From a virus (lineage: Duplodnaviria; Caudoviricetes), in IMG/VR virus record IMGVR_UViG_3300035661_000073, positions 1-57,883 of that record: 57,883 nt of DNA. One strand, written 5' to 3'. Made by a program: the position numbers and the translations under genes. Below the pieces are notes generated by a model. The model searched no databases and was not told where the DNA came from. It was given only the letters and a program-made list of their open reading frames with translations. Below, in pieces: positions 15,051 to 57,883 of the stretch (positions within the stretch are counted from its first letter, which is position 1; the number at the start of each line of letters is the position of its first letter).

Positions 15051-15153
15051 CGCTTCTCCCTGGAGATGGGACGCTTGGCCCCTTGACACTTTCAGAGTGT
15101 GTACTTTTTAGTCATCGGTCAAATTTTTCTTCTGATCAAATAGGTTTACCCAA

Positions 15154-17712
15154 CTAGTCGGAATTGCGCCCGGCCCGGTACGGCACCCAGGGGTGTTCCT
15201 CCACCGGTTCCTGCCATTCCGTTTCCTGCCAGGGCGGCACGGCGTCCAGGCGGTGGGCGTAGTCGGCCAGGCCCATGGTCAGGTAGCGCAGGCTGGTGAT
15301 CACGTCGTAGCGCCGGATCGGGGTCTCACGCATGGGCCCGTCGCCGTCCTTGTTCCACTCGTAGCCGCTGTACTGGTCGTGCAGGGTTTTCAGGTTCTGG
15401 CTGATCAGCAGGCGCTGGGTCTGGAACCGGTGCCACATGGTGTCCATCCCGGTCGGGAAGGAGTTGTTGGCCTTGATGAATTTGCGCTTCTCCTCCTCGA
15501 TCTCGTCCCAGTTCGGGCCGTGGGCCAGGTCCCAGTACTTCTCCAGGATCTTGGTGCCGTCCGCCTGGGACGCCTGGTCCGAGGCCGGATCGATCATGAA
15601 CGACATCGATGGGCCCCACTTCTGGAGGTTCCGGTAGTGGTATTCATAGTCCTTCTCCGCCTGCTCGTACGAGGCGTAGACGTAGACCACGTCGGAGAGG
15701 GGATCCCAGGCGGCGGCGGTGGCGGCGGTCGGGTGGCGCCAGCCCACGTCCAGCCCACCCAGGTAGCGCCAGTGGGGACTGATGGCGATCTTGCGCGGGT
15801 CGTAGAGCACCGAGTCCAGCGGGAACGGGAAGATCAGGCCGGAGTTGCTGGTCTCCCGGCCCTCGGAACGGGCCGCCAGCATGGCCGGGTCGGACGCCCA
15901 CAGGGCCCGGTTCCGCGCCTTCACCTCTGGGTCCAGGTGCTTGGCGTCGTCGTAGCTCAGGTAGACGCGCAGGACATGGGGGCCGCCGGCATTGTCGCGG
16001 ATCCACTTCACCAGCGGGGTGATGCCGTGCTGCGGGCACAGGGCGTAGTAGATGAAGCCATTGTTGACCGAGATGCGGGCGATCAGCTCGTCCATGATCT
16101 CCTTCGGGCACTCCTCATCCACCCACACCCGGTCGCCAGTCCAGGAGGCCAGGGCCTGTTGGTCCATGCCGTGGGTCTTGAACGAGATGACGCTGGTGGT
16201 GTCGGACGGGACGTGCTTGACCCAGACAGTGTCGATGGCGCCGGCCACCGACTTCATGGACGGTTTGCCCATGATGTACTTGTGGTGGATCAGGGCCTCG
16301 CGCCCCGGCTTGTCGGTCCACCCCGGGCGGTTCTTGTCGGGCCCGAACAGTTTGCGCTGGGGGGCGTCACGCACGTTCTCGGTCGTGTCACCGACCACCC
16401 AGGCGTTGATGCCCCGCGAGGTTTTCGGGCCCTTGTACCAGTCCGGGTAGAGCCCGGTGGCGTCCCACGCCAGTTGCACAGCGGCGGCATGGCTCTTGCC
16501 CGAGTTGTGATTGAGCACCGTCCCAATGAAGTAGTTGTGGGTCCCCTCCACTTCAAAGTCCCACACCTGCCCCTTGCGGAGCCAATCAATGCGCCTTACG
16601 CTTTGGTTTGGAGCGTAATATGCCGAACAAGCACAAAGGTCGTCAATCTCGAGACTGGCCCGTGGACCAGATTCGCCGTTGGGTGGAGGTTGAAGGGTGG
16701 AATCTGCACCAGATTTCTCGAGAGATGGGGGTGCCCCTGTCCACCATGCAGAAGGTTCTGGTCCGGAATGGGATTCTCTTGAAGGGCAAGGGACGGCCCC
16801 CCCGAGACTGGCCAGTCGATCAGATCCGGCTGTGGGTGGAAGTTGATGGCTGGACGATGGATCAGGTTGCTCGAAAACTTGGCACCCACCACCAGACGGT
16901 GTCAAAGGTTTGTGCAAAACATGGGATTCGGACCCAACGGACAGGTCCTCGAGCAGGGGAAGGGCACCCGAAATGGGAAGGCGGCCGGATCCTGGACAAG
17001 CACGGCTACGTGCTGGTCTACCGGTTGAACCATCCGATGGCACGGAAGCGTGGGAAGATGCCCCCCATCTACGTCCCTGAGCATCGACTGGTGATGTCCG
17101 AGCACCTTGGGCGGATGCTTGATCCTCTCGAGGTTGTCCATCACAAGAACGGGGAGAAGCAGGATAATCGGCTCGAGAACCTCGAGCTTTACACATCCAA
17201 TGCTCTCCACCTTGAGGACGAACTGACGGGTCGCTGCCCAAAGTGGAGCGAAGCCGGGAAACAGGCGATCCGTCTTGGAGTAAAGCGGAGGTGGGCTGCC
17301 ACCCGGAAGGGGTCAGGATCCGGTGACCCCTCGAGCAAATGATCTGGGTTCCGTCATCGAAGGTAACCCGGTAGAGGTCCTCGAGGCATTTCTTGAACGG
17401 CCGATGAGCCCTCGAGATCACCACCTCATGGCCGTCCCATGACTCCACGAAGAAGTCACCGTCGATCTCGTCAACCCGCCTCGAACACTTGGCCACCGGG
17501 TCCCAGATCTCCTGCTCACCACCTACACATTGGTTCGCTCCGAAAATTCCCTTGATATGCTTGAAGGAATTGAAAAATTCCAACTGCGGTTCGTAGATCC
17601 CGTTCGGAAAGGCCATGTCGGTCAGGAAGGCCATCTCGGCTTCCTGCTGGATGCCGGCCTCCGCCAGTCGTAATCCGGTGACCAGCCCTTCCAAGCCGTC
17701 GTGTCTTGCCAT
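15154..17712 (-). CDS. terL: Terminase large subunit, intein-containing (about 510 aa after splicing)
   Basis: Walker A GANQ|SGKS split by the intein, Walker B 'VWVDEE', nuclease motifs 'GGLDVGWRHP' and 'YDVITSLRY'. Confidence 0.93.
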   Translation of the reverse strand: MARHDGLEGLVTGLRLAEAGIQQEAEMAFLTDMAFPNGIYEPQLEFFNSFKHIKGIFGANQCVGGEQEIWDPVAKCSRRVDEIDGDFFVESWDGHEVVISRAHRPFKKCLEDLYRVTFDDGTQIICSRGHRILTPSGWQPTSALLQDGSPVSRLRSTLGSDPSVRPQGGEHWMCKARGSRADYPASPRSCDGQPREDQASAQGARTSPVDAQGRRWGASSHASVPSDGSTGRPARSRACPGSGRLPISGALPLLEDLSVGSESHVLHKPLTPSGGGCQVFEQPDPSSSHQLPPTAGSDRLASLGGAVPCPSRESHSGPEPSAWWTGAPPSLEKSGADSTLQPPPNGESGPRASLEIDDLCACSAYYAPNQSVRRIDWLRKGQVWDFEVEGTHNYFIGTVLNHNSGKSHAAAVQLAWDATGLYPDWYKGPKTSRGINAWVVGDTTENVRDAPQRKLFGPDKNRPGWTDKPGREALIHHKYIMGKPSMKSVAGAIDTVWVKHVPSDTTSVISFKTHGMDQQALASWTGDRVWVDEECPKEIMDELIARISVNNGFIYYALCPQHGITPLVKWIRDNAGGPHVLRVYLSYDDAKHLDPEVKARNRALWASDPAMLAARSEGRETSNSGLIFPFPLDSVLYDPRKIAISPHWRYLGGLDVGWRHPTAATAAAWDPLSDVVYVYASYEQAEKDYEYHYRNLQKWGPSMSFMIDPASDQASQADGTKILEKYWDLAHGPNWDEIEEEKRKFIKANNSFPTGMDTMWHRFQTQRLLISQNLKTLHDQYSGYEWNKDGDGPMRETPIRRYDVITSLRYLTMGLADYAHRLDAVPPWQETEWQEPVEEHPWVPYRAGRNSD
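16574..16602 (+). promoter_or_regulatory. Candidate sigma70 promoter for the antisense HNH gene
   Basis: TTGCGG-N17-TACGCT, then GGAG (16610-16613) and ATG 16620. Confidence 0.45.
16620..17342 (+). CDS. HNH homing endonuclease with two N-terminal HTH-like repeats, encoded antisense inside the intein
   Basis: Two copies of 'RDWPVDQIRxWVEVxGW'; 'GEGHPKWEGGR...HGY...YVPEHRLVM...VVHHKNGEKQDNRLENLEL' (HNH_3 type); GGAG RBS. Confidence 0.92.
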   Translation: MPNKHKGRQSRDWPVDQIRRWVEVEGWNLHQISREMGVPLSTMQKVLVRNGILLKGKGRPPRDWPVDQIRLWVEVDGWTMDQVARKLGTHHQTVSKVCAKHGIRTQRTGPRAGEGHPKWEGGRILDKHGYVLVYRLNHPMARKRGKMPPIYVPEHRLVMSEHLGRMLDPLEVVHHKNGEKQDNRLENLELYTSNALHLEDELTGRCPKWSEAGKQAIRLGVKRRWAATRKGSGSGDPSSK

Positions 17713-17791
17713 GAAAACACCCCTGGGTTTGGGGGCATCCCCCGTCCCAAGGGTGTCTACTTTTTAGTCATCCGTCAATTTTTTGAGCCGA

Positions 17792-18223
17792 TCACCCTTC
17801 ACTTATTGCGATGTTGTCGCAAATAAAGGCGTGGTCGGGGTGGTCGATGGTGATGCCCCAGATGGGCTCCTCCATGATCTCGCCCATGTATTCCAGCAGG
17901 GCGAAGGCCGGAGCCCCCCTGGGAGTGCGGACCACCACCGGGCGCTGGTCCTGGGCCGCCCGGCGGGCCCGGATGAATTCCTGCTTGCCGTTCTCGCACA
18001 GGACACAGACCTTGTGGGCCAGGGTGCATTCCAGGATGCCGAAGTCGTGGCGGAACCGGTGGACCATGCGGATGCCGGCGTCGAAGGAGGTCAGCACATG
18101 GGCGGTGCGGAAGTCGTGATCGCGGAAGTCGTAGGCCAGCACCGGGTCGCCGGGATGCAGGTGGGGGATGGCGGTGCTTTCCCCGGACGGGTGCAGCACC
18201 TGGGCATCGCCGCGCAGACTCAT
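17792..18223 (-). CDS. Free-standing Hint (intein-like) domain protein
   Basis: 'SLRGDAQVLHPSG' (block A), 'LHPGDPVLAYD', 'LECTLAHKV' (TxxH block B), 'PIWGITID..HAFICDNIAIS' (block F/G without HN). Confidence 0.8.
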   Translation of the reverse strand: MSLRGDAQVLHPSGESTAIPHLHPGDPVLAYDFRDHDFRTAHVLTSFDAGIRMVHRFRHDFGILECTLAHKVCVLCENGKQEFIRARRAAQDQRPVVVRTPRGAPAFALLEYMGEIMEEPIWGITIDHPDHAFICDNIAISEG

Positions 18224-26309: not shown

Positions 26310-26810
26310 ATGGCTATCGCTTTCGAGCAGATAAAAGCCAATCTCTTTTGGCTCACCGTCAATGAGTCGGAATGGCACCAGCACCCCAAGGGCGGGGGCT
26401 GGGTCCAGAACACCGCCCACGTTGACGAGTCCGCGATGGTAGAAGGTGTGGTCTTCGGCGATGCCCAGGTCTTCGGCGATGCCTGGGTCTTCGGCAATGC
26501 CCGGGTCTACGGCGATGCCCAGGTCTACGGCGATGACTGGGCGTTCTCCCCGCTCCAAATACAGGGGGCGTGTCATTTTGTGACCACATGCACCCATACC
26601 CATCTCCAGATTGGATGCTATCGGCACACGTTAATTGAGTGGCAACGCCACTATCAGCGCATCTGGCGATCCGAAGGCTACACCCCTGACCAGATCGCAG
26701 AATGCGGGCTCATCATCGCCTTTGCCGCCGATTGGTTAGAAGCCAAGTTCTACAAACAAGGGGCATCGCAGCGCGATGCCAGGGGCCGATTCACCAAGAA
26801 AACCACATAA
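26310..26810 (+). CDS. Hexapeptide-repeat (left-handed beta-helix) protein
   Basis: VFGDAQ/VFGDAW/VFGNAR/VYGDAQ repeats; GGAGG RBS. Confidence 0.8.
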   Translation: MAIAFEQIKANLFWLTVNESEWHQHPKGGGWVQNTAHVDESAMVEGVVFGDAQVFGDAWVFGNARVYGDAQVYGDDWAFSPLQIQGACHFVTTCTHTHLQIGCYRHTLIEWQRHYQRIWRSEGYTPDQIAECGLIIAFAADWLEAKFYKQGASQRDARGRFTKKTT

Positions 26811-28133: not shown

Positions 28134-28297
28134 GGGTATGCAGATATCCGGGAGAAGAACCATGAAACCGAGCGGCGCTGCCGTTCTGCTGTGGGTCGTG
28201 GTGCCCCTGATTTTCTGGGGTGCCGTGGCTGCTGCAACGATTTTTAACAATTAACGAGATCCTGCCCAGGAGCACCACCCATCCCCATGGAGCCGAA

Positions 28298-28804
28298 ATG
28301 AAACGCTACACCCCCGAAGAACTCAAGACCGTGCTGGACGCCCACAAAAAGTGGCTGCGCGACGAGGACGGCGGCAGCCGGGCCGACCTGGGCGGGGCCT
28401 ACCTGGGCGGGGCCAACCTGCGCGGGGCCAAACTGCGCGGGGCCTACCTGCGCGAGGCCGACCTGCGCGGGGCCGACCTGGGCGGGGCCGACCTGCGCGG
28501 GGCCAAACTGCGCGGGGCCGACCTGCAAATCTATTCCCTGGAGGTATTCTCTGGCCTATATCCCTACGTCTGCTACTCATTTGTGACACAAGCCGGCGTC
28601 CCATGGGTCCGCATGGGCTGCCTCTGGCACAGCCTGGAGGATTGGGATCGGATTGGGATTCGGGCCAGCAATGTCAACGAGTTTCCCGACGATGGCGGCG
28701 GAAAATGCGAGCGGAGGGTCCGAGCGTACGAATTCGCCCGCGCTGCCGCTCTGGCCCAGGTGGAGAAATTCCGCACTGAGAACCCCGCCCAGGCCACGGC
28801 CTGA
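28298..28804 (+). CDS. Pentapeptide-repeat protein
   Basis: '[16 protein letters not shown]' followed by A(D/N/Y/K)LxG repeats; GGAG RBS. Confidence 0.9.
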
Positions 28805-41053: not shown

Positions 41054-42145
41054 ATGGCGACAATAGCCCTGAACATGATCGTCAAGGATGAGGCGGCCGT
41101 CATCCAGCGGTGCTTGGCCTCGGTGCGGCCCTGGATCGACACCTGGACCATCGTGGACACCGGTTCCAACGATGACACCCCGGCACTGATCGAACAGTCC
41201 CTGCGTGGCATCCCTGGGGAACTGTGCCACCAGCCCTGGGTGGACTTCGGACACAACCGCTCCGAGGCCATCGCCCTCGCCGGCACCCGGGCCGACTACC
41301 TGTTGTTCATCGACGCGGACGAGGAACTGGTCATGCCCCCGGGGTTCGTCTGGCCGGACCTGACCGCCGACGCATACTCGTTCAACCACCACTACGGGAA
41401 CCTGCACTACCATCGCGCCGCCTTGGCCCGGGCCCGCCTGCCGTGGCGGTTCGAGGGGGTGTTGCACGAGTATCTGGCCTGTGCCCAGCCTCACCAGATA
41501 CAGCGCCTGGAAGGCCCCACCATCCTGGTCCGGCCCGAGGGTTCGCGCAGCTCCGACCCGCACAAGTATGACAAGGACGCGGCGCTCCTAGCCGAAACCA
41601 TCAAACGCGACCCGGGCAACCACCGCCACTGGTTCTACCTGGCCCAGAGCTACCGGGACGGAGGGCGTTTGGCCGAGGCTCATGCCGCCTACCAGCGCCG
41701 CGCCGCCATGGGCGGGTGGGACGAGGAGGTGTGGTATTCCCTGTACCAGATCGCCAGGCTGAAAGAGGTGTTGGGGGCGCCGAAGCCGGAGGTGTTCCAG
41801 GCCCTGATCGCCGCCTACGAATACCGCCCCAGCCGGCCAGAAGGGGTGGGGTCCCTGGTCCGGTTTTGCCGGATGCAGGGGGACCACCACACCGCCCACG
41901 CCTACGCCCGGGTGGCCATGGACCTGCCGCCCTGCCAGGATGCGCTGTTCCTGGAACCCGATTGGCAGCGGTGGATGGTCGATGACGAGTACGGGATCAC
42001 CTGCTACTGGACCGGGCGCTACGCCGAGGCGGTGGCGTCATGCCGGCGGCTGCTGGCGAACCCCCACCTGCCCGACCGGGAGCGGGAACGGGTGGCCCGA
42101 AACCTGTCCTTTGCCGAACGAGCCCAAGTCGGAGGTGCCGCATGA
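41054..42145 (+). CDS. Glycosyltransferase family 2 with TPR repeats
   Basis: 'LNMIVKDE', 'VDTGSND', 'FIDADE', 'GVLHE'; TPR 'WFYLAQSYRD'. Confidence 0.9.
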   Translation: MATIALNMIVKDEAAVIQRCLASVRPWIDTWTIVDTGSNDDTPALIEQSLRGIPGELCHQPWVDFGHNRSEAIALAGTRADYLLFIDADEELVMPPGFVWPDLTADAYSFNHHYGNLHYHRAALARARLPWRFEGVLHEYLACAQPHQIQRLEGPTILVRPEGSRSSDPHKYDKDAALLAETIKRDPGNHRHWFYLAQSYRDGGRLAEAHAAYQRRAAMGGWDEEVWYSLYQIARLKEVLGAPKPEVFQALIAAYEYRPSRPEGVGSLVRFCRMQGDHHTAHAYARVAMDLPPCQDALFLEPDWQRWMVDDEYGITCYWTGRYAEAVASCRRLLANPHLPDRERERVARNLSFAERAQVGGAA

Positions 42146-43022: not shown

Positions 43023-43121
43023 ACATCCGATCTGTATAAAAATTAGTCATATCTTGGAATTTTGAATTATATACGATTTGACCATTGGCAGGTCGCGGTC
43101 ATGGCTCCTTCCGCACCTGGG

Positions 43122-43152
43122 GCGCCCCTTCATCGTGGAGGGGCGTTTTTTT
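43122..43152 (+). terminator. Rho-independent terminator
   Basis: gcgccccttca-tcg-tggaggggcg followed by T7. Confidence 0.75.
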
Positions 43153-43186: not shown

Positions 43187-43399
43187 ATGAGCCGAAAACT
43201 TCTGGGGGTTGCCTTGGGGTTGGTGATCGCCCCAGTTCTGCTTTTCTACCTGTTCTCCGTGGCCATGGGGCTTGGTGATGCAACCGGCAAGGTCGCTGCC
43301 CTGATGGCCCAGCCCCGGGGGTTCCTAGCCCTGGTCGGGGCGGTCTCCATCATGGGCAGCCTGCTCTGGTTCACTTGGAGAGGAGTCGTTGGACGGTAG
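43187..43399 (+). CDS. Small two-TM membrane protein
   Basis: MSRKLLGVALGL...; TATAAT at 43163 and GAGG RBS upstream. Confidence 0.6.
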   Translation: MSRKLLGVALGLVIAPVLLFYLFSVAMGLGDATGKVAALMAQPRGFLALVGAVSIMGSLLWFTWRGVVGR

Positions 43400-46300
43400 G
43401 CAGGCCCTTGCGTACCGCCTGGGCCTCCCGGCGCCGTTCCTCGGCGGGGGTGGGGGAGTCAGTCAGGTAGTGGGCCGCATCAGCGTAGCCGCGCGGTTTC
43501 TCTTGGCCGGTGAGGATCTTGGCCTGCTTGATCGATGAGACGCTGGACAGCAGCGGGGAGGCGCTGCCCTTCATGAGCGAAGCTGCCAGCGCGTAGATGT
43601 CGGCGCTGATCCCCAGCACCGGGCTGGAGGTGGCGGCACCGCGCCAGTCGCCCACGGCCGCAGCGACCTCGCGCTTGCCCTGCATCTTGTCGGGGGTGAA
43701 GAAGTAGTGGAACATGCCCTTGGTCATGTTGGCGGCCCAGTGGGCGTTCACCAGCGGGGGATGGAACATCATCTTGAACAGGTCGTGTCCGTACTTCTTG
43801 CCGATCAGTCCGATGGCACCCAGGGCGACGACGTGGCGGATCAGGTGGGCGGTCTCGTCCGAGCCGAACACGTCCTTCTCGCCCTTCAGCCCCTGGGCCA
43901 GGATCTTGGCCTGGATCTCCAGGCCCTTGGCCGGGGTCATGGTGAACATGATGCCCGCGTTGGCGACCGGGTCTTTCAGATACTTGGCCGCGTCCGCCCC
44001 GCCCCGGTAGTTGTAGTCCAGGATGGACAGCATGGTGGCGCGGATCTGCTTGTTGGCGTCGAACCCTGCGGCCGCGCCCCGGCGCACCGAGGCCATCATG
44101 TTCAGGCCGTTCTCGAAGGCTTCCACGGCCGTCACCGGATAGCCTGCCAGGGTGCCGATCTTGCCGGCCAGCTTGGTCACGGGCCGGTCCAGGGTGCCGC
44201 GCTCGTATTCGGCCACCATCGGGTCCTCGCGCAGCATCCGGCTGATCTGCTTGGTCGCCATCAGGTTGGCGGCCAGCACCTGGGTCAGGCTCTGGTCCCG
44301 GGGCGTCCCGCCCAGCGCCTTCACCGCCTTCTGAATCAGCGGGGCGTTGGCCGCGTCCTGCGCGTAGTTCACGGCCATATCCTTCATGGCCGGGAGCAGC
44401 CAGGTGTGGTGGTAGCCCAGCAGGTTGGCGGTCTTGATGGCATGTTTCACCGCCACCCGGGGGCTGAAGGCGATGGTCTTCAGGATCTCGAATTGCTTGG
44501 CCGCCTGGAGGATGGGCGCGTAGACCGGAGGCTCCTTGGGATATTCCATGTCCCGCAGCCGTTCGTTCAGCCAGGCTCCGTACTTGGGCGCGTAGTAGTC
44601 GCCGCCCTCGGTGAGATAGGGATTCTTGCCCCACTTGTTGAGTACCGGCTGGTAGGCCAGTTTCCGGGCCACGGTCGGGATGTAGTAGGACAGGGAACCG
44701 TGGGCGGTGGGGAACAGGTTCATGTTGCCGTTGCGGTGGTGGAAGGACAGCACCTGCTTGATCTGGAGCCGACCTTCGGGGGTGCTGAACCGCTGGGTGT
44801 CCAGGGGCTTCAGCAGGTGGGTGATGTAGGGGTCTTCGAGCACCGGGATGCCGCGCTTCTTCAGTGCCTCGCGGTACTTGTCCATGCCTTCCCGGATCTG
44901 GCCGGCAACTTCCATATCCTGCTTGGTGGCGATCTTCTCCAGCCATTCGGGCGGGGCCCCATCCGCCGGCAGTTCCGCCAGCAGGGAGACCCGCACGTCC
45001 TGGTATTTCTTGGCCAATTCCTGGATTCGAGCATCGGCGTTGGTGTAGTGCCCCTTGAGTTCGTCCTGGAGCCGCTTCATCGTGCCTCGGTTCTTGGCGT
45101 CCCACTTGGCCTTGAGCTCTCGCGCCTTGACCACGGACGGATCGTTCCCAGCCATGCCCATGGCGTTCAACAGGGCTTCCTCGGTGCCGCGCTTGAGCCC
45201 CTTGGACCGGTCCCCGGCCTGGCCAGATTTGAGCGCCCGGTCGATTCCCTTGGCCTCGGACTCGTTGGCGATCCGTGTCGCGGCACGTTCCGTTGCCTGC
45301 TTCAGCGCCTTGTCCAGCGCCTCGGCCTGGCGCTCCAAGGGGTCCAGTTGCCGGGACACCCGGAAGATGTTCTGGCTCACAGGGGTCATGACCTTCTGCA
45401 CCACCTTGCTGGCGTCCTTGACGCCGCGCAGGGTCCGCACCGCCCACTGGGTGCCGGCGGCCTGCTTCATCACCCGGTCATTGGCGGCCAGGGACTGGTC
45501 GATGACGATGCCCTCGCCCGGTTCGTGGACCTGGCCCTCGATCTGGTGGGGGGAGCGGCCGTACTGCCCGACCGTGCCGGATTTCAGGTCGCCCTTGGGC
45601 TTGGGCAGGGTGGGGTCGATCATGGAATCGGCCTGCTCCGCCAGCCCGCCGGTCCCCGCGTCCAGGTGCTGGAGTTGGTTGTTCCCGTCCAGGGCCTGGG
45701 CAAGGTTCTTGAAGGCGTTGTCGCCCAGGTGTCGGAACGGGGAGATGCCCTCGGAGATGGCGTGGACCGCCCCGGTGATGGCCCGCTTGGCGGCCCTGGC
45801 CAGCAGGCCCTGGCCAGCCCGGCCCGGGGGCACGATGATGGCGCCGGTCTGGCGCCCGACCTTGCCCGCTTCCTCCACATCCTGGGCCACGGACTCGGGG
45901 GTCTGGGCCCCCTGCTGGGCCAGCGCCTGGTCCAGTTCGGCATCGGTCTTGGGCTTCTGGGCGGCGCGGTACTGCTCAGCCATGCGCTGGAGGGTGGCGT
46001 CCTCCAGGTGGGCGTAGTGCGCCCTCTGAGTGTAGAGCCATTTCCGCAGACTCTTGTCCTGGTCGCCCGGGAACAGTTCGCCGATCCGGGCCTTCTCTCG
46101 AACCCTGGTATCCTTCATGGCCTTCTGCTCCGGGCTCAGTTCCGCCTTCGGCTTGGGCTCCGCCTTGGTGCGGACGGTCCGGAGCTTGGGCGCCGGCTTC
46201 TCGGTGGCCGGTTCGGGGGCCTTGGCGTTGGCCTTGGCCGGTTCGGGCGCCGTGGCTACTTCGCCTTCGGTCCCTCCGAAGTCGGCGGATCCGTCTCCGC

Positions 46301-49300
46301 CAAAGAGGCCCGGACCTTCGCCTCCACCGCCAGGGACAGTTTCACTTTCTCGGCCAGTTCCGGCGTGAGCGGAGCGAATTTCTTTTCGTACCATTTCGAA
46401 GGCTTCGGCTCGGATGGCGTCGGCGTCCTTGGCAGACTTGGCTTGCTGGAGTCGGGCGGCGTAGTCATTGATGATATCTCCTATCCCGGTCAGGTTCTTC
46501 TGGGCCTTGAAGTAGCCGAGTGCGGAGGCTGATTCCTGCTTCAATTCCCCGGCGCCCTTGGTGTCCACCGTGGCGGCTTTGCCCACCGCCTCAGAATATC
46601 GTTTCCCGGTCAGAACCGTGCCAGCCTGTTTGTCGGCCGCCAATTTGCCCTGGATATGGCGGATCAGGTCGGTCTGCTCGGCCAGGGTGGAGGTGGTCTC
46701 CTCTTCCCCGAACAGGTTGGTCTGGCCGGTGGCCACGTCGCGGGTGCCCTTGATCCGGTCCACCATCTCCTTCCAGTAGGGGGTGGAGATGTCCTCGGCG
46801 CTGCCCTTCTTGGCGATCAGGTCGTGCAGTTCCTTGAAGGCGGTCTCGGTCTGCTTGCCCTTCAACCCAGCCTTGCCGGTCTCGATGGCCAGTCGCAGGA
46901 TCTCTGGGTCATTGGCGGCGGCGTGGAACCAGGAGTCGGGCAGGCCGGCCAGGGCCATGCCGTCCTGGACGACCTTCTTATTGGCCGGGATGCCCTTGGC
47001 CTCCAGGTCGGCGGGAGTGGTCTTGGCGTTGCGGAAGTAGACCGCCGCGTCCAGGGCGGTGCCGTTGCCTTCCGCAAGGTTCTTCACCGCGCCCTGGGTC
47101 ATCGCATCCTTGGCGTCCTTGGCATCCAGGAACTGCACCCGAAGGTTCTGGACCCCCAGGTCCAGGGCCTTGTCGTAGCGGTTATGGCCGTTGACCACGT
47201 AGACCTTGCCGTCGGCCGGATCGCGCCACACGTCCAGCACCCCGGCGGACTGCTCATTCCATGCCTTGACCCCATGCAGGGAGCCAGTGGCCCCGGTTCG
47301 AGAGTTGACCTGCTGAATCCCGGTGGTCTCGTTCTGAACCTTGTGCTGGAACCGCACTGGATCGGCGTGGAGGCTGGCGGTGGGGATGGTGAACACATCG
47401 CCAGACACCTTCAGCCCAGGGACATCCTGGAGGGATTCCGGGACCTGCCGGGCCGGGGTCGGATCGAGGTTGGCGGCGGCACGGGCGGCCTTGGCGGCGG
47501 CCATCGCCTGGTCGGCCTTCTCGGGGGAGGTGCCGGTGCCGGAATGCAGTTCCCCGGTCAGGCGCACTTCCTTGCCGTTCTCGGTGAAGGTGAACGGGGC
47601 CTTGGCCAGCGCCTTGTTGGTGGCGGCGATGGCCGCATCGATCTGCGCCTGGGTCCCGCCGGTCAGACGGAACTCGTCACCGGAAATGTGAGCGGCCAAC
47701 AGACCCGCCTTCTTGGCCTGGGCATGGAGGGTCTTGCCGATGTGGATCAGGTATTCGGTCCCGGTCTCCTGGCCGTGCTTGTTGGCCGCTTTCAGCCCGC
47801 GCACGTCGAGGCTGGCGACCGGGTCGCCCTCTTTGTATTGTCGGTCGAAGGCGAGGCCGTTGGTCATCTCGGGAATGCGCTGGTCGAGCAGGCGGTCCCG
47901 CTCCAGTTCCTGCACCCGGGCGATGGCTTCCTGGTGGGTGAGTTGGTCGGCCGGCCGCTCCGCCGCAGCAGCGGCCCGCACCTGGGCTCGGCGCTCGGCT
48001 CCGCGCCGTTCCACGTCCACCGGCTGGTCGGCCTGCCGCCGGTCCTGGCCGGACCGTTCCTGGGGGGTGTCGAAGATCAGCCCTTCGGTGAAGTCCGGCG
48101 CTTTTTCTTGGACTTGCCTGCCTTCGACAGGGCGATTGCCACCGCCTGCTTCTGCGGGCGCCCCGACGACACCAGTTCCCGGATGTTCGCTGACACCACT
48201 TCCTTCGACTTGCCCTTCTTGAGCGGCACGGGGAGCCTCCTGGGGGTTCTGCTCGGGGGTGACCTTGCGCCACTTGTCCGCCACCGCCTCCCGGGCCTGG
48301 TTGATGGCGTCGAACTGCACCTGGTTGTAGGTGTGCCGGGCGTGGATGTCCTTCAACTCATCCACGGTCTTGGGGTCGTTCCGCAGCACCGTCTGGATGT
48401 CCTTGTCGGTGACCTTCTTGCCCTTCTGGGAGTAGGCTCGGCCCTTGGCCTTCTGGAGCACCCGGTCGAAGTCGCGCTGGATCCGCTCCAGGTCCGCCTG
48501 GGCTTGGGCCTGCTTCTCGTTCAGGGGCGCCATGTCCAGGTCGAACCGCTCCTGCAACAGCTGGGGCAGGCCGGCCCGGATCTGGTCCACCGGGATGGCC
48601 GGTGCCGCCGGTTCGGGGGCCGGGGTTGGTTCGGGCTGGGGAGATGGAGCGGCGGCGGCGGGCGCCTCTGGGGTGGGCAGGGTCCGCTTCTGGATGTCGC
48701 TCCGGTTGAACTGACGCTGGCCCGGCATCTCCTTGAGCGCCGCCTGGACTTCCTTCTGGACATCCACCGGTTCGGCCTTGCCCTTGTAGGCGATGCCGGC
48801 CTTGTCGATGTGGTCCAGCGTCCCCAGATCCCGCCAGGCGCTGGTGGCGTCCTTCTTGGCCTGTTCCCGCACCTCCGGGCGCCGATCGTCCATGCGCTCG
48901 TAGGCATCCTGCACCTTGCCCAGGATAGCCTCGCGGGCGTGGTCCCTGGACACGTACTCCTTGGCCACCTGCCCGGCCCGGAAGGTGCGTTGGCCTTCCC
49001 GGACCATGCCGGCCGCGCCGAACACATGCATGGCGGCGATCTGTTTGGTGGCCTCCACCACCCCCTGCTCCCACTTCTCCTTGGTCATGTCCTTGCCCAT
49101 GACCAACTTGTCCACCAATTGATCCAGGGTGCCCCAGGCCACGCCTTCCCCGGCGGTACGGGACGCACGGGCGGCGATCATCCCGGCCAGGGTCTTGAAC
49201 GCCTTGTCCCCACCCGGGACCGCCTGGAGCGCCGCCACGGTGGCGGCAGACAGGGTGCCTGCGGCCAGATACTGCGTAGGGGTGGCGTCCTCCTTCATGG

Positions 49301-50009
49301 CGCTGTGGGCCTTGCTGATCCCGTTCTCGGCCATCAGGAAGGCCAGCCCCCAGGGGTTGCCGTACTTGACCCCGGCGGCGGCGGTCCCGCCCACTAGTTC
49401 CGCGTCCTTGGCCACCCGACTTTCCGGGTTGCCGCCAGCCTCAGTGAGGAAGGTGCGGGCCAGGTTGTCGCTACGTTTCTGGTAGGCGTCCCAATCGTCG
49501 GACCAGTCCTTGACCGACTTGTAGACCTTGTCGAAGGCCCCACCGATGGCCTTGGTCACCGGGTTGGTGGCGGGCCCGGCCGCCGCGTCCAGGCGCCCCA
49601 GCAGGTCGGCCAGGATACCGGCGCCCTGAACGGGCACATTGACCGGGGCGGCCAGGCTCCGGCGGGCCGCTTCCACCCCGAAGGCGGCATCCTTGCGGCC
49701 CTGGCTGGGGGGTTCCACGGTCGGAGTGCGCCCCTCGGCGCCGGCCAGGTTGGCCTGCATGATGGTGTCCAGGGTGGACGGCTTGGGCGGCACCAGAGCC
49801 GGGCGCGGGGCGAGGTTCAGCGGACGCAGGACATCCGGCACCGGCCGGGGCCCAGCCGGAGAGGGCACGGCCGGACGCTGTGCCCGAGACAGCAGGGGGG
49901 CATCCGCACCGCCTTCCGGGACCGCCTCGAACCCATCCGGGGGAGGAGGTGGCCCTGCGGCCTTCCGGGCGGTGGCTTCCTCGAACCCCGGCGGCGGTGC
50001 GATGGCCAT
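43371..50009 (-). CDS. Giant virion ejection/polyvalent protein (2212 aa) with GGDEF-like and ParB-like domains
   Basis: 'PPPGFE' N-terminal repeats; last gene of the ejection cluster; SGDEF motif at 47670-47684; 'YVVNGHNR' ParB-like motif. Confidence 0.8.
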
Positions 50010-50011
50010 GG

Positions 50012-51601
50012 CTACTCCTTCACCCAGTTGTTGCCCTTGAGCCGGAACCAGACCAGATCCCCGGTGGCCTTGTCCCGGAACTGCTGGCGCTCACCGCCGG
50101 ACGAGGGTTCGGGACGACCGCCCTTGGGGGTTCCCGCGTCCCGAGAATTCTCTGGGCGCTGCACCTTGTCCTTCTCCCACTGGTCCAGGGCGGTCATCAC
50201 CGCCTTGCCCTGGTCCGGGTCGTTCAGGTTCAGGGCGTAGGCCAGGGCCATGTCCGGGTCCTCGTTGGCCAGTTTCTTGAACTGCGCCACCGCCTGGAGC
50301 GGGGATAGGGCACTGACGCCCTTCATCGCATCGCCCTTGGCCTGGTTGATCAGGGTGTTGACCCGCTGCTGCTTGCGCCGTTCCAGCCGGTCCACCGCCT
50401 TCTCCCCCTCGGACTTGACGTAGGCGTTGGCCCGGGTCACCTTCGCCTGGAGCGAATCCAGTTTGGCCTGGAGCGCGTCCCGCTTGGCCGGGTCGGCTTC
50501 CTTGGCCAGCGCCAGGGTGGTCTTCTGGATCTCGTCGGCCACCTGGATGTCCTTGTTGGAGTCCTCGCCCATCCGCAAACTGGCCCGCCAGTTCTCGCCC
50601 TTCTCCTTGAACCTCAGCCGCTCCCAGTCCCCTTTCTCCTTCATCATTTCGACCATGAGTTTGGTCATGTTGTCGGCGTTGTCCTTGGTCTGCTTGGTGT
50701 AATCATTGGCGTCGATCAGGCCCGCCTTGAGCATCCCGTCGGTGAGCACCTGACTCATGCCGACCCAGGTCCCGTCCGGGTTCTGGAGCCCGTCCAGGCC
50801 GGTGCGCGGGTCCTGGCCCACCTTCCAGCCGGGGCCGTAGATCGAGTTGATGGTGTTCTGGTCCTTGCGCCGCACCGCGTCCACGAACGCCTGCGCCTTG
50901 CGGTTGCGGACGGCGTTGTCCACGCTCGCCTTGTAGTCCTCCACCTCGGTCTTCCACTTCTGGAAACTCGGGTCCTTCTCCTTCATGTCCATCCAGGCGG
51001 ACAGCATCCGGTTGGCGGCCTGGGGATCGTTGGGGAAGTGCTGGCGGGCATACTGGATGATCCGGGTCTCGGCTTCCTGGGCCTCCTTGGTGTAGGCCAG
51101 TTCCTTCTCGTGCAGCCCTTTCAGGGTGTCGCTCATTTCTGGCGGAGCGACCGGGCCCTGGGGCTGGGCCTGGGGCGGGGTGGCGGTCAGGGCAGGGGCG
51201 GCGGCCGGTGCCGGGGGTTGCCACTGGGCGATCTTCTTGGCCAGCGGGGAGTCGGGGTGGACCAGCCCGGTGGTTGGCGCCCCCAGGCCCGGGACGGCAG
51301 GGGCCGCCAGGGTCGGGCCGTTGGCGGGGGCAGGGACGGGCGCGGGGCCGTTCAGGGACGCCTCATACTCGGCCAACTGCGCCGTGGCCAGATGGGCGGG
51401 GTCGGCCATTCGGTACGCCTTCTGCGCCCCGTTCAGGTCCATGCCCGCCTGGCGCTGCTGGGACTCGTCCCAGGACTGGCGGATGCGGGCCAGTTGCTCG
51501 TCCTGGATGGACTCCTGGCGGTCCTTGTCCCGCCGGGCCAGGACCCCCTCAGCGTACCCGTTCAGCGCCTGCCCGATGCCGCCTGCCGCTCGCCAGTCCA
51601 T
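50012..51601 (-). CDS. Putative DNA ejection protein
   Basis: 'GGIGQALNGYAEG' N-terminus, helical, 'GNNWV' C-terminus; synteny. Confidence 0.65.
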   Translation of the reverse strand: MDWRAAGGIGQALNGYAEGVLARRDKDRQESIQDEQLARIRQSWDESQQRQAGMDLNGAQKAYRMADPAHLATAQLAEYEASLNGPAPVPAPANGPTLAAPAVPGLGAPTTGLVHPDSPLAKKIAQWQPPAPAAAPALTATPPQAQPQGPVAPPEMSDTLKGLHEKELAYTKEAQEAETRIIQYARQHFPNDPQAANRMLSAWMDMKEKDPSFQKWKTEVEDYKASVDNAVRNRKAQAFVDAVRRKDQNTINSIYGPGWKVGQDPRTGLDGLQNPDGTWVGMSQVLTDGMLKAGLIDANDYTKQTKDNADNMTKLMVEMMKEKGDWERLRFKEKGENWRASLRMGEDSNKDIQVADEIQKTTLALAKEADPAKRDALQAKLDSLQAKVTRANAYVKSEGEKAVDRLERRKQQRVNTLINQAKGDAMKGVSALSPLQAVAQFKKLANEDPDMALAYALNLNDPDQGKAVMTALDQWEKDKVQRPENSRDAGTPKGGRPEPSSGGERQQFRDKATGDLVWFRLKGNNWVKE

Positions 51602-51610
51602 GATGCCCTC

Positions 51611-52300
51611 CTACGAAATCCGCAGATCCGACATGTCCGCGCCGTAACCGGACGGGGACCAGTCCTGGCTGTAGTCCACCGAGCCGCCCGGGTTGCCGCC
51701 GCCGCTGGGCGCCTGCAAGGGTTTGCGGTAGAGCATGGCCAGGTTCGCCAGGCCACGGGCCGCCTCGCCGTAGGCGCTGGCCGAAGCGGTGGAGTCCTGG
51801 TTGGACCACTGGTTCATCTGCCCGGCCATGTCGGCATTGACGCCGGTCTGCACCCCGACCCAGCCCGGCACCCGCGAGGCCCGGTCGGTCCACTGGCCGA
51901 GCTGCGCCCGCTTGTTGATCTGGTCCTCCAGGTTCAGCCCGGCGATGCCCTGGGCCTTGGCGAACTGGCTGGTGAGCATCCGCCCCCCGGCGATGCTGTC
52001 GCCGGTCACCGGGGCCTGGGTCAGGATGTTGCGCTGGATGCCAGCGAACTCGCTGCCCAGGCGGTCCTGGGCCCGCTGGCCTTCCGGGGTCAGGCCGGTG
52101 CCCTGGAATACCCCCAACTGCCTCTGGATGAGATCCTGGGTCGGCGCTTCCTGGGCCTTCAGCTCCTCCCCGATGGCCTGGTTGCGCTGCCACATCTCGT
52201 AGGCTTGCGCCCGTTCGCGCTTGGCATCCTTGCCCCCGGAGATCCCGGAGTAGATGCTGAACGCGGTCCCAACTCCTGCGGCTACGGCTGCGGCGGACAT
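51611..52300 (-). CDS. Putative DNA ejection (pilot-like) protein
   Basis: Ala/Gly-rich N-terminus 'AAAVAAGVGTAFSIYSG'; Gln-rich body. Confidence 0.65.
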   Translation of the reverse strand: MSAAAVAAGVGTAFSIYSGISGGKDAKRERAQAYEMWQRNQAIGEELKAQEAPTQDLIQRQLGVFQGTGLTPEGQRAQDRLGSEFAGIQRNILTQAPVTGDSIAGGRMLTSQFAKAQGIAGLNLEDQINKRAQLGQWTDRASRVPGWVGVQTGVNADMAGQMNQWSNQDSTASASAYGEAARGLANLAMLYRKPLQAPSGGGNPGGSVDYSQDWSPSGYGADMSDLRIS

Positions 52301-52767
52301 GGCAACACCTCCTGGAGAACCTTCCCGGTGATGAAGTCGAAACCGTGGGGTTCGTCCTCGAACAGTTGCTTCTCGATCTCGGTGAGGTCGGTGAGATGGG
52401 TGTGGTGGGCGGTGGCGAACAGGGTATCCTCGTGCGCCACGGCGAACGGCTTCACCCCGGCCTTGCCAGTGATCGAGGCCGGGCCTTGCAGGCGCACCAG
52501 CCCGCGCTCGGTCAGGATCGAGATGTCCCCGGACAGGCAGATCAGCAGGTCGTCCTGCCGGTGGACCCGCCCGGTCAGGCAGACATTTTTCGGAATTTTG
52601 ATTTTCCGGAAATAAATCCCGAAGGCGAATTCATGTTCCACTGGAAGTTCCACGAATTCCCCGCTGGCCAGGATCCCCTGCTCCATGGCCCGGATAGCCA
52701 CACGCACCTTGTCCGGGGTGGGTTCTGCCGCCCCGAAGCCGATGGTGCTGATTCGATGGGTGATCAT
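52282..52767 (-). CDS. Cupin-fold phage protein
   Basis: 'EHEFAFGIYFRKIKIPK..LTGRVH...AGVK..AHEDT.F.TAH'. Confidence 0.75.
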   Translation of the reverse strand: MITHRISTIGFGAAEPTPDKVRVAIRAMEQGILASGEFVELPVEHEFAFGIYFRKIKIPKNVCLTGRVHRQDDLLICLSGDISILTERGLVRLQGPASITGKAGVKPFAVAHEDTLFATAHHTHLTDLTEIEKQLFEDEPHGFDFITGKVLQEVLPCPPQP

Positions 52768-54364: not shown

Positions 54365-54739
54365 TTACATCCCATTCTCTGCCATCAACTCCGGCACGGT
54401 GAACGGCATCGGCCCACAGGGGTTGAAGTCCATCAAATCGCCGGACCACTCATGGGTGATCAGCGGCTTCCGCTGGTAGTAAAGTCCCCAGACGCTGGTA
54501 ATCCAGTTCTGCACAGCTACTGCCTTGGGCAGGCCACGAAGAACGCTGATGGTGAGCAGTCCAATGGCCGCGCCGGAGATACTGGCCTCCTGGTAGTCCC
54601 GCGCTGCGCACCAGAGCGCGTCCAGGTTCTGCGCTCGAATCACATCCAAGGAGGTAGTGAATTCCTCGTCCGTCAGGTCCGGATTCCGCACCGGGCCGGC
54701 TTCGGTGTTAACCCACAGAGGGCGTTCGGGTCCTACCAT
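54365..54739 (-). CDS. Putative tail fibre assembly/chaperone protein
   Basis: Follows a fibre gene; GGAGG RBS. Confidence 0.55.
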
Positions 54740-55803
54740 ACGGGCACCTCCTGGACAGTCATCGAACCTGCGGCGATGTCCACGGTGTTGGCGGCTAGGC
54801 TGTGCTGAAAGTCCATCTGGAGTTCATCCCCTGCCGCCAATGGCGCAAATTCGTTGTATGGCGGGGTCGGGTACTGGCCGCCCACGAAATTACAAATCTC
54901 CAACAGAGCGGTGTATCCGGCGTTGATCTTCACGCTCATGAGGAAACGACCCATTGTTCCGGTGAAGCTGGTTGCAGATCCGTCGATCTGGAACCGTCCA
55001 CAGATGAAGTAATACCCAGCCCGGCGGATCTTGAATTTGGCATTGGCAGCATTGGTCATGCTGGAGTTGTCAAACCCAACCGTGGTCATGGCTGTATAGA
55101 CGTTGTGTGCGAAACTCCCGGTAAGGTCCGTCTGGGCCCCGCCTGCGAGTTTTGCGATCATCGGGATAGATTTCCCACCGATCTTGCACCAGTTGGACCC
55201 GTCGCACTTGAGTATGGCGACTTCGTTAGCCCACATGACCCTAGTGTTCTGCCCATCGATCAGTTCCGCGCCGTTCCCCTTGACCGTCACCAGTTTGGTG
55301 CTGGACCCGTCAATCCGGACGCCAACCAGTGCCCCGTTCGAGGATGCCGCAGCCGGCAGGGTGACGGTGTAGTCGGCCGAAGTTGCGGTGCATTTGTGGA
55401 AGGTCGCGGCGGCCAAGTTCGCGGTCGTGGTGACGGCCACCTCGGCGTTGACCAGGGTGGCAAGTAGGTCTGCGGCCGCGTCTGCACCAGTCGCTCCCGT
55501 AGGCCCGGTTGGTCCCGTGGGGCCTGGCACCGTGGAATCAGCCCCAGTGGGCCCTGTCGGCCCAGTTGCACCGGTTGGTCCCGTGGGTCCTGTGGCACCT
55601 GTCGGACCGGTCGCACCAGTGGCACCCGCACCACCACCGCCACCGCCCCAGTAGCCGAGGTCGCTCCAGTGATCGATCCCGTTGCCCAGTTTGACCCGGG
55701 AGGTATCCAGTTCGATCCCCAACTCCCCCTGCGCCAGGATAGGGTTCGTGGCCGTCCATGCAGCCGCCGAATCACGCCGAAGTTGAATCTGTCCAGCCAT
55801 CAT
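54733..55803 (-). CDS. Tail fibre protein with Mtd-like N-terminus and collagen-like repeat
   Basis: '[34 protein letters not shown]'; GPT repeats; 'TVTLPAA'. Confidence 0.85.
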
Positions 55804-57108: not shown

Positions 57109-57883
57109 TTAAACCTCCTGCGGAATATGAACCACGGTCAGGGTGATGGCCCGACCCACCGTGTCGTTGTTGGTGATGGCGACATAGGCCGTGACGGAAA
57201 CCGGGTCATCATCGTTGGCGAAGATTGGCTTGGGGTCCTGCAGGACGCGCAGAGCCCCAGTAGCAGTCACCGTGTCAGCCACTACGCCAGAGCCACTACG
57301 GGGGTAGCTGTTGACGTTGCGGGATGCGTCAGCGGTTCGTGCGGCGGCCGTCGCGCAGACCCGCACCCAGGCAGGGTAGTCCGTTTCAAGGACCTTGATG
57401 AGTGTGGTCTTGGCGAGGTCTACCTGCACATTGGCCGTGGCCCCCGGTGCAATGCTGGCGGTGGTGATGGTCGCCGTGGTGCTGGTGCCGCCGCCGCTCC
57501 CCGCCGGCCCCGCCGGTCCCTGCACCCCCGCCCCGCCGCCGCCGAGGTCCAGGCTGTCCACCCAGCCGAGCAGGTAGGCCCCGCAACTGGCGTCGTTGGC
57601 CGCGTAGTAGACGCTGTCCGACTCCAACACCAGATCGCCGGGGATCGCGGATCCGGTAACCACTGTCGCCGTTTCATACAGCAGCGGCGGCGGGTTGGTC
57701 GAGGATGTCAGGCCACCGTAGCCGTTGTTCGGAGCCAGCAGCACCACGGCCTCGTTGTTGTTGTAGGCGCGGATCATGGCCCGGATGGCCACAGCGGTGG
57801 ACGGCACCAGGTGCCCGTTCCCACGCACGGCCACGGCAACCCAGGTCGGCGTAACCGGATCCCCCTGAGCCCCGGAGGCAATC
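57109..57883 (-). CDS. 3' part of the origin-spanning collagen-like tail fibre gene starting at 1353
   Basis: In frame with 1..1353 through the terminal overlap; C-terminal 'AWVRV..AAARTADASR..GSGVVAD' fibre motif. Confidence 0.8.
   Translation of the reverse strand, partial: IASGAQGDPVTPTWVAVAVRGNGHLVPSTAVAIRAMIRAYNNNEAVVLLAPNNGYGGLTSSTNPPPLLYETATVVTGSAIPGDLVLESDSVYYAANDASCGAYLLGWVDSLDLGGGGAGVQGPAGPAGSGGGTSTTATITTASIAPGATANVQVDLAKTTLIKVLETDYPAWVRVCATAAARTADASRNVNSYPRSGSGVVADTVTATGALRVLQDPKPIFANDDDPVSVTAYVAITNNDTVGRAITLTVVHIPQEV
57757..57883. repeat. Terminal direct repeat copy of 1..127
   Basis: Exact sequence identity. Confidence 0.95.

Follow-up and report, generated by a model that had tools for sequence, protein, structure and literature searches.

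The virus record IMGVR_UViG_3300035661_000073 (Duplodnaviria; Caudoviricetes) is a complete genome of 57,883 bases with a GC content of 64.6% and a terminal direct repeat of 127 bases (positions 1-127 are repeated at 57757-57883); this whole stretch is what we refer to as the window. On its minus strand, a giant open reading frame (ORF) at 43371-50009 encodes a protein of 2,212 amino acids, and the subject of this analysis is a GGDEF-family domain in the interior of that protein. An original prediction, made from the sequence alone, had placed a GGDEF-like nucleotide cyclase domain at 47490-48059 (residues 651-840 of the giant protein, minus strand) and offered three options for its role, namely an injected enzyme that alters cyclic di-GMP (c-di-GMP) at entry, an enzyme that makes a different dinucleotide, or a degenerate decoy. 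The peptide that it quoted is found on the minus strand within the giant ORF, as are the (D/E)RR motifs described ahead of the domain (DRR656, ERR667 and ERR672); judged by eye, relatives carry similar [ED]RR...R[RK]xR[VI]..M motifs before their GGDEF domains. The ORF has a GC3 (GC content at third codon positions) of 0.87, its gene-caller version (P0004) starts 56 residues later, and proline-rich linkers split the protein at about residues 1-100, 400-500 and 1200-1300. The domain keeps the signature residues of the GGDEF family and has a threonine, Thr751, in place of the guanine-specifying aspartate. The features of the giant gene are as follows, where P0003 denotes the excised 181-residue segment that holds the domain.

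43371..50009, minus strand: giant gene, 2,212 amino acids, very probably of polyvalent type; final gene of the minus-strand late operon, without cysteine
47988..48044, minus strand: basic motifs DRR656, ERR667 and ERR672 ahead of the GGDEF domain, from sequence positions
47475..47936, minus strand: stalk helix and GGDEF domain, amino acids 692-845 (AlphaFold2 elements H13-28 to H150-166 of P0003; Pfam PF00990; PDB profile; Foldseek)
47805..47807, minus strand: D735, metal-binding Asp of the first strand, in 104/104 family segments
47757..47783, minus strand: N743-K-H-G-Q-E-T-G-T751, remodelled stretch of the base-binding site, its specificity position occupied by Thr
47670..47684, minus strand: S776-G-D-E-F780 signature motif (G, D and E each in 104/104 segments, S in 75/104, F in 97/104)
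47481..47492, minus strand: K840 and R843 of the last helix, A-D-x-x-M-x-x-x-K-x-x-R (K in 100/104, R in 86/104)
46365..47417, minus strand: ParB/Srx-fold domain and helical bundle, amino acids 865-1215 (phrog_21, AlphaFold2, Foldseek)
43374..46112, minus strand: C-terminal 913 amino acids with no named domain, conserved in P0005, P0006 and P0007

Evidence for the domain comes from both sequence and fold. Pfam, which the original prediction had proposed as a check, matches the excised segment P0003 to PF00990 with an E-value of 3.1e-6; the score of 27.5 bits exceeds the curated threshold, which is 23.8 bits. A phmmer search of the PDB with the single domain was marginal (5euh at E 0.061), so that a profile was needed. 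A HMMER scan of 1.84 billion representatives returned 116 proteins at E <= 1e-3 (clusters at 50% identity), 81 of them at least 1,000 amino acids long; 12 proteins whose best stretch scored <30 bits were left out, as was P0004 (the giant protein itself), giving 103 segments that were aligned with the query to a family of 104. The 29-member subset of this alignment, A1, used as a profile against the PDB, brings up 49 distinct sequences with an E-value of 1e-3 or lower; almost every one is named diguanylate cyclase or GGDEF, and none carries the name of an unrelated fold. The top matches are all diguanylate cyclases, with DgcB (6tts) best at 6e-16 and PleD at 7e-11. Searches for close relatives with DNA context found none, either by pattern search of viral contigs (P0003, P0002 and A2) or of metagenome contigs (A2), and a tblastn search of GenBank phages with the domain was likewise without a match.

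The GGDEF fold on which the prediction depended is present in the AlphaFold2 model of the domain, which was built from A1 with a predicted local distance difference test (pLDDT) score of 90.7 and a predicted template modelling (pTM) score of 0.81. In this model a helix (residues 13-28 of P0003) precedes an alternating alpha/beta domain. Foldseek returns 91 PDB chains for it at E <= 1e-3, and all among the matches listed are GGDEF-domain entries. The best template modelling score, 0.70, belongs to the coiled-coil and GGDEF structure of DgcB (6ttr); the Geobacter Hypr GGDEF 6d9m is matched at 9.8e-6, and the non-catalytic GGDEFs FimX (3hva) and LapD (6pwk) are also among the matches. We regard it as practically certain that the segment is a true GGDEF-family domain by homology. 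A chance motif match was rejected on the Pfam, PDB-profile and Foldseek E-values, and a palm domain of the Cas10/mCpol type was rejected as every sequence and structure match is a GGDEF proper.

The original prediction had read the metal-binding Asp, the Lys, the Asn and SGDEF as present and the guanine-specifying Asp of the NDxxGHxxGD consensus as lost, and both readings hold at residue level. Alongside the counts listed above, all of which refer to residues that the query retains, K740 is found in 94 of the 104 segments and N743 and G750 in every one; the metal and catalytic roles of D735, K740 and N743 are those that we take to carry over from PleD and GacA. The same residues are invariant across the query clade, whose members are 40-70% identical. 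Thr751 aligns to the D of GHQAGD in 5euh and falls in the same column in the 6tts and 4wxo profile alignments. In the family, that specificity column holds D in 83 segments, N in 16, T in 4 and S in 1 (n = 104), and with 21 of 104 segments departing from Asp it is unusually variable. An RxxD inhibitory site, five residues before the motif, is typical of diguanylate cyclases, though not universal; none is found in the stretch ahead of SGDEF.

A change at this very position defines the Hypr GGDEFs, in which a Ser replaces the canonical Asp and contacts the Watson-Crick face of guanine or adenine by a hydrogen bond, and for which c-di-GMP, cyclic GMP-AMP (cGAMP) and cyclic di-AMP (c-di-AMP) are described as products (Hallberg et al. 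2019, PMC6456294). According to the same source, natural GGDEFs with Ser or Thr have GGDE[F/Y] exclusively, and in GacA a Ser-to-Asp change brings back pure diguanylate cyclase activity. The phage motif S776-G-D-E-F780 fits the pattern [G/A/S]G[D/E]E[F/Y] given there, and its central residue is Asp in all 104 segments of the family. With Thr751 and a central Asp, the domain therefore carries the published Hypr signature.

We placed this change on a tree obtained with a quick IQ-TREE run. The four Thr sequences (the query, P0005, P0006 and P0007) form a single clade with a Shimodaira-Hasegawa-like approximate likelihood ratio test (SH-aLRT) support of 98, and their sister, P0008, joined with a support of 99, has Asp and a GGDEA motif. 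Together they are nested within the phage family, apart from seven cellular-looking GGDEFs. Because Thr occupies one supported branch with an Asp-bearing sister, it is best read as a derived and conserved feature of a small clade; it likely arose independently of the GacA/Bd0367 group, as judged from a tree that holds no GacA-type sequence. For Asn at the same column, the tree needs at least three origins. Of the three options in the original prediction, a product other than c-di-GMP is the best supported, since Thr with xGDEF is the published natural Hypr signature.

Compared with the Hypr enzymes (GacA of Geobacter and Bd0367 of Bdellovibrio, as described in PMC6456294; 6d9m), the phage domain shares the fold and the pairing of Ser/Thr with a central-Asp xGDEF, but it has Thr where the studied enzymes have Ser and His for Arg before the motif, it lacks a receiver domain and an I-site, and its Thr is derived inside the phage family from Asp-bearing relatives. 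With the canonical diguanylate cyclases (PleD 1w25/2v0n, WspR 3bre, DgcB 6ttr) it has in common the fold, the metal Asp, the Lys, the Asn, the motif and the C-terminal Lys/Arg, and as in DgcB and WspR a helix precedes the GGDEF. Unlike these enzymes, it is embedded in a 2,212-residue protein and has no guanine-specifying Asp, no RxxD and no sensory domain.

The region behind the GGDEF domain is the second part of the giant protein to which a name can be given. Amino acids 865-1215 match the C-terminal part of phrog_21 with an E-value of 7.7e-49, and the region recurs in 112 giant homologues. Its AlphaFold2 model, built from an alignment of whole stored proteins (A3), has a pLDDT of 84.8, and by Foldseek its first 115 residues resemble the N-terminal domains of ParB, Noc and KorB and are followed by a helical bundle (17 matches at E <= 1e-3, best 5.6e-5). 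The motifs DPxRFQxK and VVNGHNR are present, with D-P-x-R-F-Q-x-K and N-G-H-x-R (N76-G-H-x-R80) invariant in A3, and the conserved Arg and the Asp/Asn at the end of strand 2 by which a ParB/Srx fold is recognised are both found. The slice has no PDB match by phmmer and no Pfam family match. Residues 865-1215 fit the DdrB-like ParB of phage late-gene proteins, a subfamily assigned from its description in PMC5512222.

GGDEF is carried by only 5 of the 111 proteins that share the ParB-like scaffold; in precomputed Pfam annotations, other sharers have Zeta-toxin-like, ART-PolyVal, 2H phosphoesterase, and RelA/SpoT or PARP-like domains. In P0007, residues 846-1307 are missing, and the flanking sequence on either side matches the query at 56-63% identity. 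Both observations show GGDEF to be one exchangeable cargo in a modular protein. Scans of the full-length protein and of six slices of it against Pfam, NCBIfam and PHROGs turned up no credible match besides phrog_21, and the N-terminal 680 and C-terminal 900 residues carry no assignment. In the Atlas, the N- and C-terminal parts fall with unnamed viral or bacterial clusters and weak LPD22, LPD38 and LPD39 leads; the C-terminal part is placed with viral hypothetical clusters at 0.97, and its nearest named clusters, LPD39 and LPD38 at 0.95, are a lead only. A transmembrane C-terminus was rejected, as no 19-residue window reaches a Kyte-Doolittle value of 1.5.

GGDEF domains in polyvalent proteins have already been described by Iyer et al. 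(2017, PMC5512222), who call them 'not very widespread' and suggest that the cyclic nucleotide could disturb host responses or be directed at rival elements. We consider it very probable that the giant protein belongs to this class. It combines the GGDEF with the ParB/Srx-fold domain and two large regions without a named domain, and its gene comes last in an operon that includes tail-fibre-like genes, the phage genome being complete. Like the polyvalent proteins of that account, it is giant, multi-domain and set in a late or virion context, with GGDEF joined to unrelated modules, and its homologues carry LPD, ART-PolyVal, InPase and RadC domains; unlike them, it has no zincin peptidase and no detectable named LPD domain, and its specificity Asp is a Thr. 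Among 18 giant GGDEF homologues, 14 pass Pfam GGDEF, and 11 have other Pfam domains that include LPD38, LPD23, ART-PolyVal, InPase, RadC and Zeta_toxin. Set against 'not very widespread' are the 116 clusters found here, yet the share on the ParB-like scaffold is small, as noted above. In several giant relatives, including P0011 and P0025, an InPase (inorganic pyrophosphatase) domain follows closely on the GGDEF; InPase would pull the pyrophosphate-releasing cyclase reaction forward, and in the giant protein the ParB-like domain stands in its place.

The family also has members outside giant proteins. With the family member P0116, 54 phage records were matched at 31-37% identity, many of them annotated as diguanylate-cyclase GGDEF. 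Solo GGDEF proteins of about 156 amino acids occur in YuA-like Pseudomonas and FP1-like Bordetella phages, in a non-structural neighbourhood where their genes adjoin anti-restriction or SprT-like genes, and YuA gp44 has had its diguanylate-cyclase domain annotated since the genome was deposited. These proteins belong to the same domain subfamily, but they stand alone, whereas the phage domain studied here is embedded in a giant late protein. In the literature searched, the sole match for a phage-encoded diguanylate cyclase was, as presented in that source, a peptide with the host cyclase YfiN as its binding partner. The giant protein is of a kind already known and recurrent, while the Hypr-like pocket and the labile specificity position are points that we did not find in print.

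The original prediction had called the giant protein virion-ejected, and a protein that is carried in the virion and ejected is in keeping with the composition and gene context found here. The giant gene starts 2 bases past the stop of a 529-residue gene; going upstream from there, the order is genes of 229, 161, 142 and 248 residues, with overlaps or gaps of a few bases. Three of these neighbours are the following.

50012..51601, minus strand: 529-residue gene without cysteine, candidate smaller ejection protein, proposed from position and composition only
51611..52300, minus strand: 229-residue gene without cysteine, candidate smaller ejection protein, proposed from position and composition only
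52282..52767, minus strand: tail-fibre-like gene of 161 residues in the same packed operon (phrog_12032 6.1e-30; phrog_24280 1.6e-26)

Elsewhere the minus strand encodes a terminase, a portal, a capsid and a product resembling an internal virion protein. Inside the operon block, no terminator-like site was seen on the minus strand; the scan for promoters and terminators did not rise above background, and its sole clear site is a plus-strand terminator at 43119-43149. The ParB-like module is also present in a 2,563-residue protein of the Prochlorococcus podophage P-SCSP1, encoded four genes downstream of the tail-tube gene gp12 and after three smaller proteins, a position that on our reading of the gene order would correspond to that of T7 gp16, and in a giant protein downstream of a tail-fibre gene in Ruegeria phage 45A6. 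The 2,212 residues of the giant protein contain no cysteine, against 1.09% in the 37 other ORFs (binomial P about 3e-11). Cysteine is likewise scarce in the GGDEF relatives of at least 1,000 amino acids, 53 of 81 having none and 79 of 81 having <0.2%. We suggest, in terms that are not an established rule, that depletion of cysteine marks proteins that travel unfolded through tail and envelope. Taking position, composition and the podophage parallel together, we think that the giant protein is probably delivered with the virion. As a separate observation, three consecutive late proteins on the minus strand (229, 529 and 2,212 amino acids) are all free of cysteine, and such a run may be a compositional signature of ejected proteins.

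Bacterial lifestyle is under the control of cyclic dinucleotides, which several anti-phage systems also use as alarm signals. In the mechanism that we propose, the giant polyvalent protein would be made late and a few copies would enter the next host at infection. There, two GGDEF domains would pair, perhaps via the helix in front of the domain, and the paired domains would condense two purine nucleoside triphosphates (NTPs) into a cyclic dinucleotide; a homodimer prediction for two copies of the domain (alignment A1) scored 0.31, below the mark of 0.42, a value that speaks neither for nor against pairing. The enzyme would run unregulated, since it has neither a sensor domain nor an RxxD feedback site. 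Its product would likely be a mix or a dinucleotide other than c-di-GMP (cGAMP or c-di-AMP), as in Hypr GGDEFs, because Thr751 stands beside a central-Asp SGDEF and two neighbouring pocket residues are changed as well. From the first minutes of infection, the nucleotide would then reprogramme second-messenger signalling in the host or disturb nucleotide-based immunity. Packaging, ejection, dimerisation, activity, product and benefit to the phage are all steps that we infer. We lean modestly towards a catalytically active domain; the full chain, an active and delivered enzyme whose product is other than purely c-di-GMP, is plausible, if somewhat doubtful when all of its links are taken together.

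If such an unregulated, phage-borne synthase is delivered, host signalling would be altered before any phage gene is expressed. The narrower interest lies in a base pocket that matches the Hypr signature and in a family with repeated changes at one position; product analysis would test the 2017 prediction and could reveal phage-made cGAMP or c-di-AMP. A bolder version can be drawn, in which the pocket (Thr751, Gln747 and Lys744) of a virion-delivered synthase yields cGAMP, c-di-AMP or another non-c-di-GMP purine dinucleotide at entry. The Asp-to-Asn, Thr or Ser switches (21/104) would then be phages diversifying the nucleotide that they inject, with the aim of jamming, pre-empting or mimicking nucleotide-based immune signalling (of the type of the cyclic oligonucleotide-based antiphage signalling system, CBASS, or by a decoy nucleotide) and not of regulating biofilm. 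We rate this version as quite unlikely. Among the 22 small ORFs, PHROGs identified no anti-CBASS-type sponge or other named counter-defence gene.

Several observations weigh against an active, delivered enzyme with an altered product. Besides Thr751, the query clade has Lys744 after N743 (D in 91/104 of the family), Gln747 for the His of GH (H in 72/104) and Arg for the second Asp of D-x-D (D in 87/104), and where canonical enzymes have Arg before the motif there is a His, as in 88/104 of the family. On the full-length 2,212 residues Pfam yields no GGDEF match at E <= 1, the domain being visible only once excised, and P0005-P0007, three of the four close relatives, give none either. PMC6456294 describes Asp-to-Ser substitutions in canonical GGDEFs as abolishing activity in four cases out of five, and for that reason the Thr could equally mark a dead enzyme. 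No HExxH motif (zincin-like peptidase) is found in the giant protein or in P0005-P0008, nor any Pfam peptidase match in the giant protein, and the literature searched contained no experimental test of a phage GGDEF enzyme, be it this protein or any relative. A degenerate GGDEF without product, acting as an NTP or dinucleotide sensor or sponge, as a folded spacer or dimerisation unit, or for example as a regulator of the adjacent ParB-like NTPase/nuclease, has the following in its favour: four conserved family columns are changed in the clade, canonical enzymes mutated from Asp to Ser are mostly dead, the Pfam scores are marginal, the sister P0008 has GGDEA, and the non-catalytic FimX and LapD are among the structural matches. 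We nevertheless consider such a domain somewhat unlikely. The four Thr-clade sequences, at 60-70% identity, retain all of the metal, catalytic and phosphate-binding residues, which argues against decay, since decay would be expected to erode exactly those residues; xGDE is invariant in 104/104, and an RxxD site that could bind product is lacking.

The same pocket changes bear on an ordinary unregulated diguanylate cyclase, active and injected, which would tolerate the Thr and make what is essentially c-di-GMP. Here the host would be pushed towards a sessile state with pili or flagella shut down, for example as a block to superinfection. All named relatives are called diguanylate cyclase, and Asp is kept in 83/104, so that c-di-GMP is likely the ancestral product. 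Phages are also described as raising host c-di-GMP by other means, and in Pseudomonas c-di-GMP induces PlzR, with type IV pilus assembly and pilus-dependent phage adsorption blocked as a result (PMC11461919, PMC8085984). What makes us hold this alternative unlikely is that each of the four clade members has a different residue where the guanine Watson-Crick face is read, two neighbouring pocket positions being altered with it, and that GacA needs the Ser-to-Asp change described above for pure diguanylate cyclase activity (PMC6456294). Finally, and overlapping with the other alternatives, the giant protein may never be delivered and may act in the producing cell only or be purely structural. 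The solo proteins of about 156 amino acids, encoded among non-structural genes of YuA-like and FP1-like phages, indicate that packaging is not needed by the family, and this too weighs against delivery. Against a protein confined to the producing cell stand the late-operon position after the tail-fibre genes, the absence of cysteine from the giant protein and the two preceding proteins with its depletion across giant relatives, a module common to giant proteins downstream of podophage tail genes, and the general case made for polyvalent proteins in PMC5512222; we find it decidedly improbable.

The window has further features outside the giant gene, and its 57,883 bases contain no tRNA genes. 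A 45-nucleotide AT-rich repeat at 15094-15138 and 17750-17794 (82% identity, with a 26-nucleotide core identical save two variable bases) lies directly upstream of two minus-strand genes, those for the portal and the large terminase; two copies were found where none is expected by chance, and the repeat is a candidate phage promoter or regulatory site. The large terminase itself (15154-17712, minus strand, 852 amino acids) matches phage terminases only over amino acids about 385-819. Its N-terminal stretch of roughly 380 residues is an unexplained extension, and amino acids 404-598 match phrog_31467, which has no assigned function.

In the early region, the plus-strand ORF 28220-28804 contains ten 15-nucleotide tandem units that encode pentapeptide repeats of the type A-[DN]-L-[RG]-G (phrog_7713, 1e-26); the resulting pentapeptide-repeat protein may be a DNA mimic. 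Also in the early region, five 18-nucleotide tandem units (GGTCTTCGGCGATGCCCA-like) at 26432-26546 may code for hexapeptide repeats on one strand. DNA coding for collagen-like Gly-X-Y repeats, with a period of 9 nucleotides, is found at 551-1175 and at 55487-55628 (minus strand); the latter lies inside a tail-fibre-like gene (54733-55803) and the former in an ORF that probably crosses the terminal repeat. Between the endolysin-like and spanin-like lysis genes, a glycosyltransferase-like gene (41054-42145, plus strand; phrog_13126, 9e-28) overlaps the spanin-like ORF by about 100 bases.

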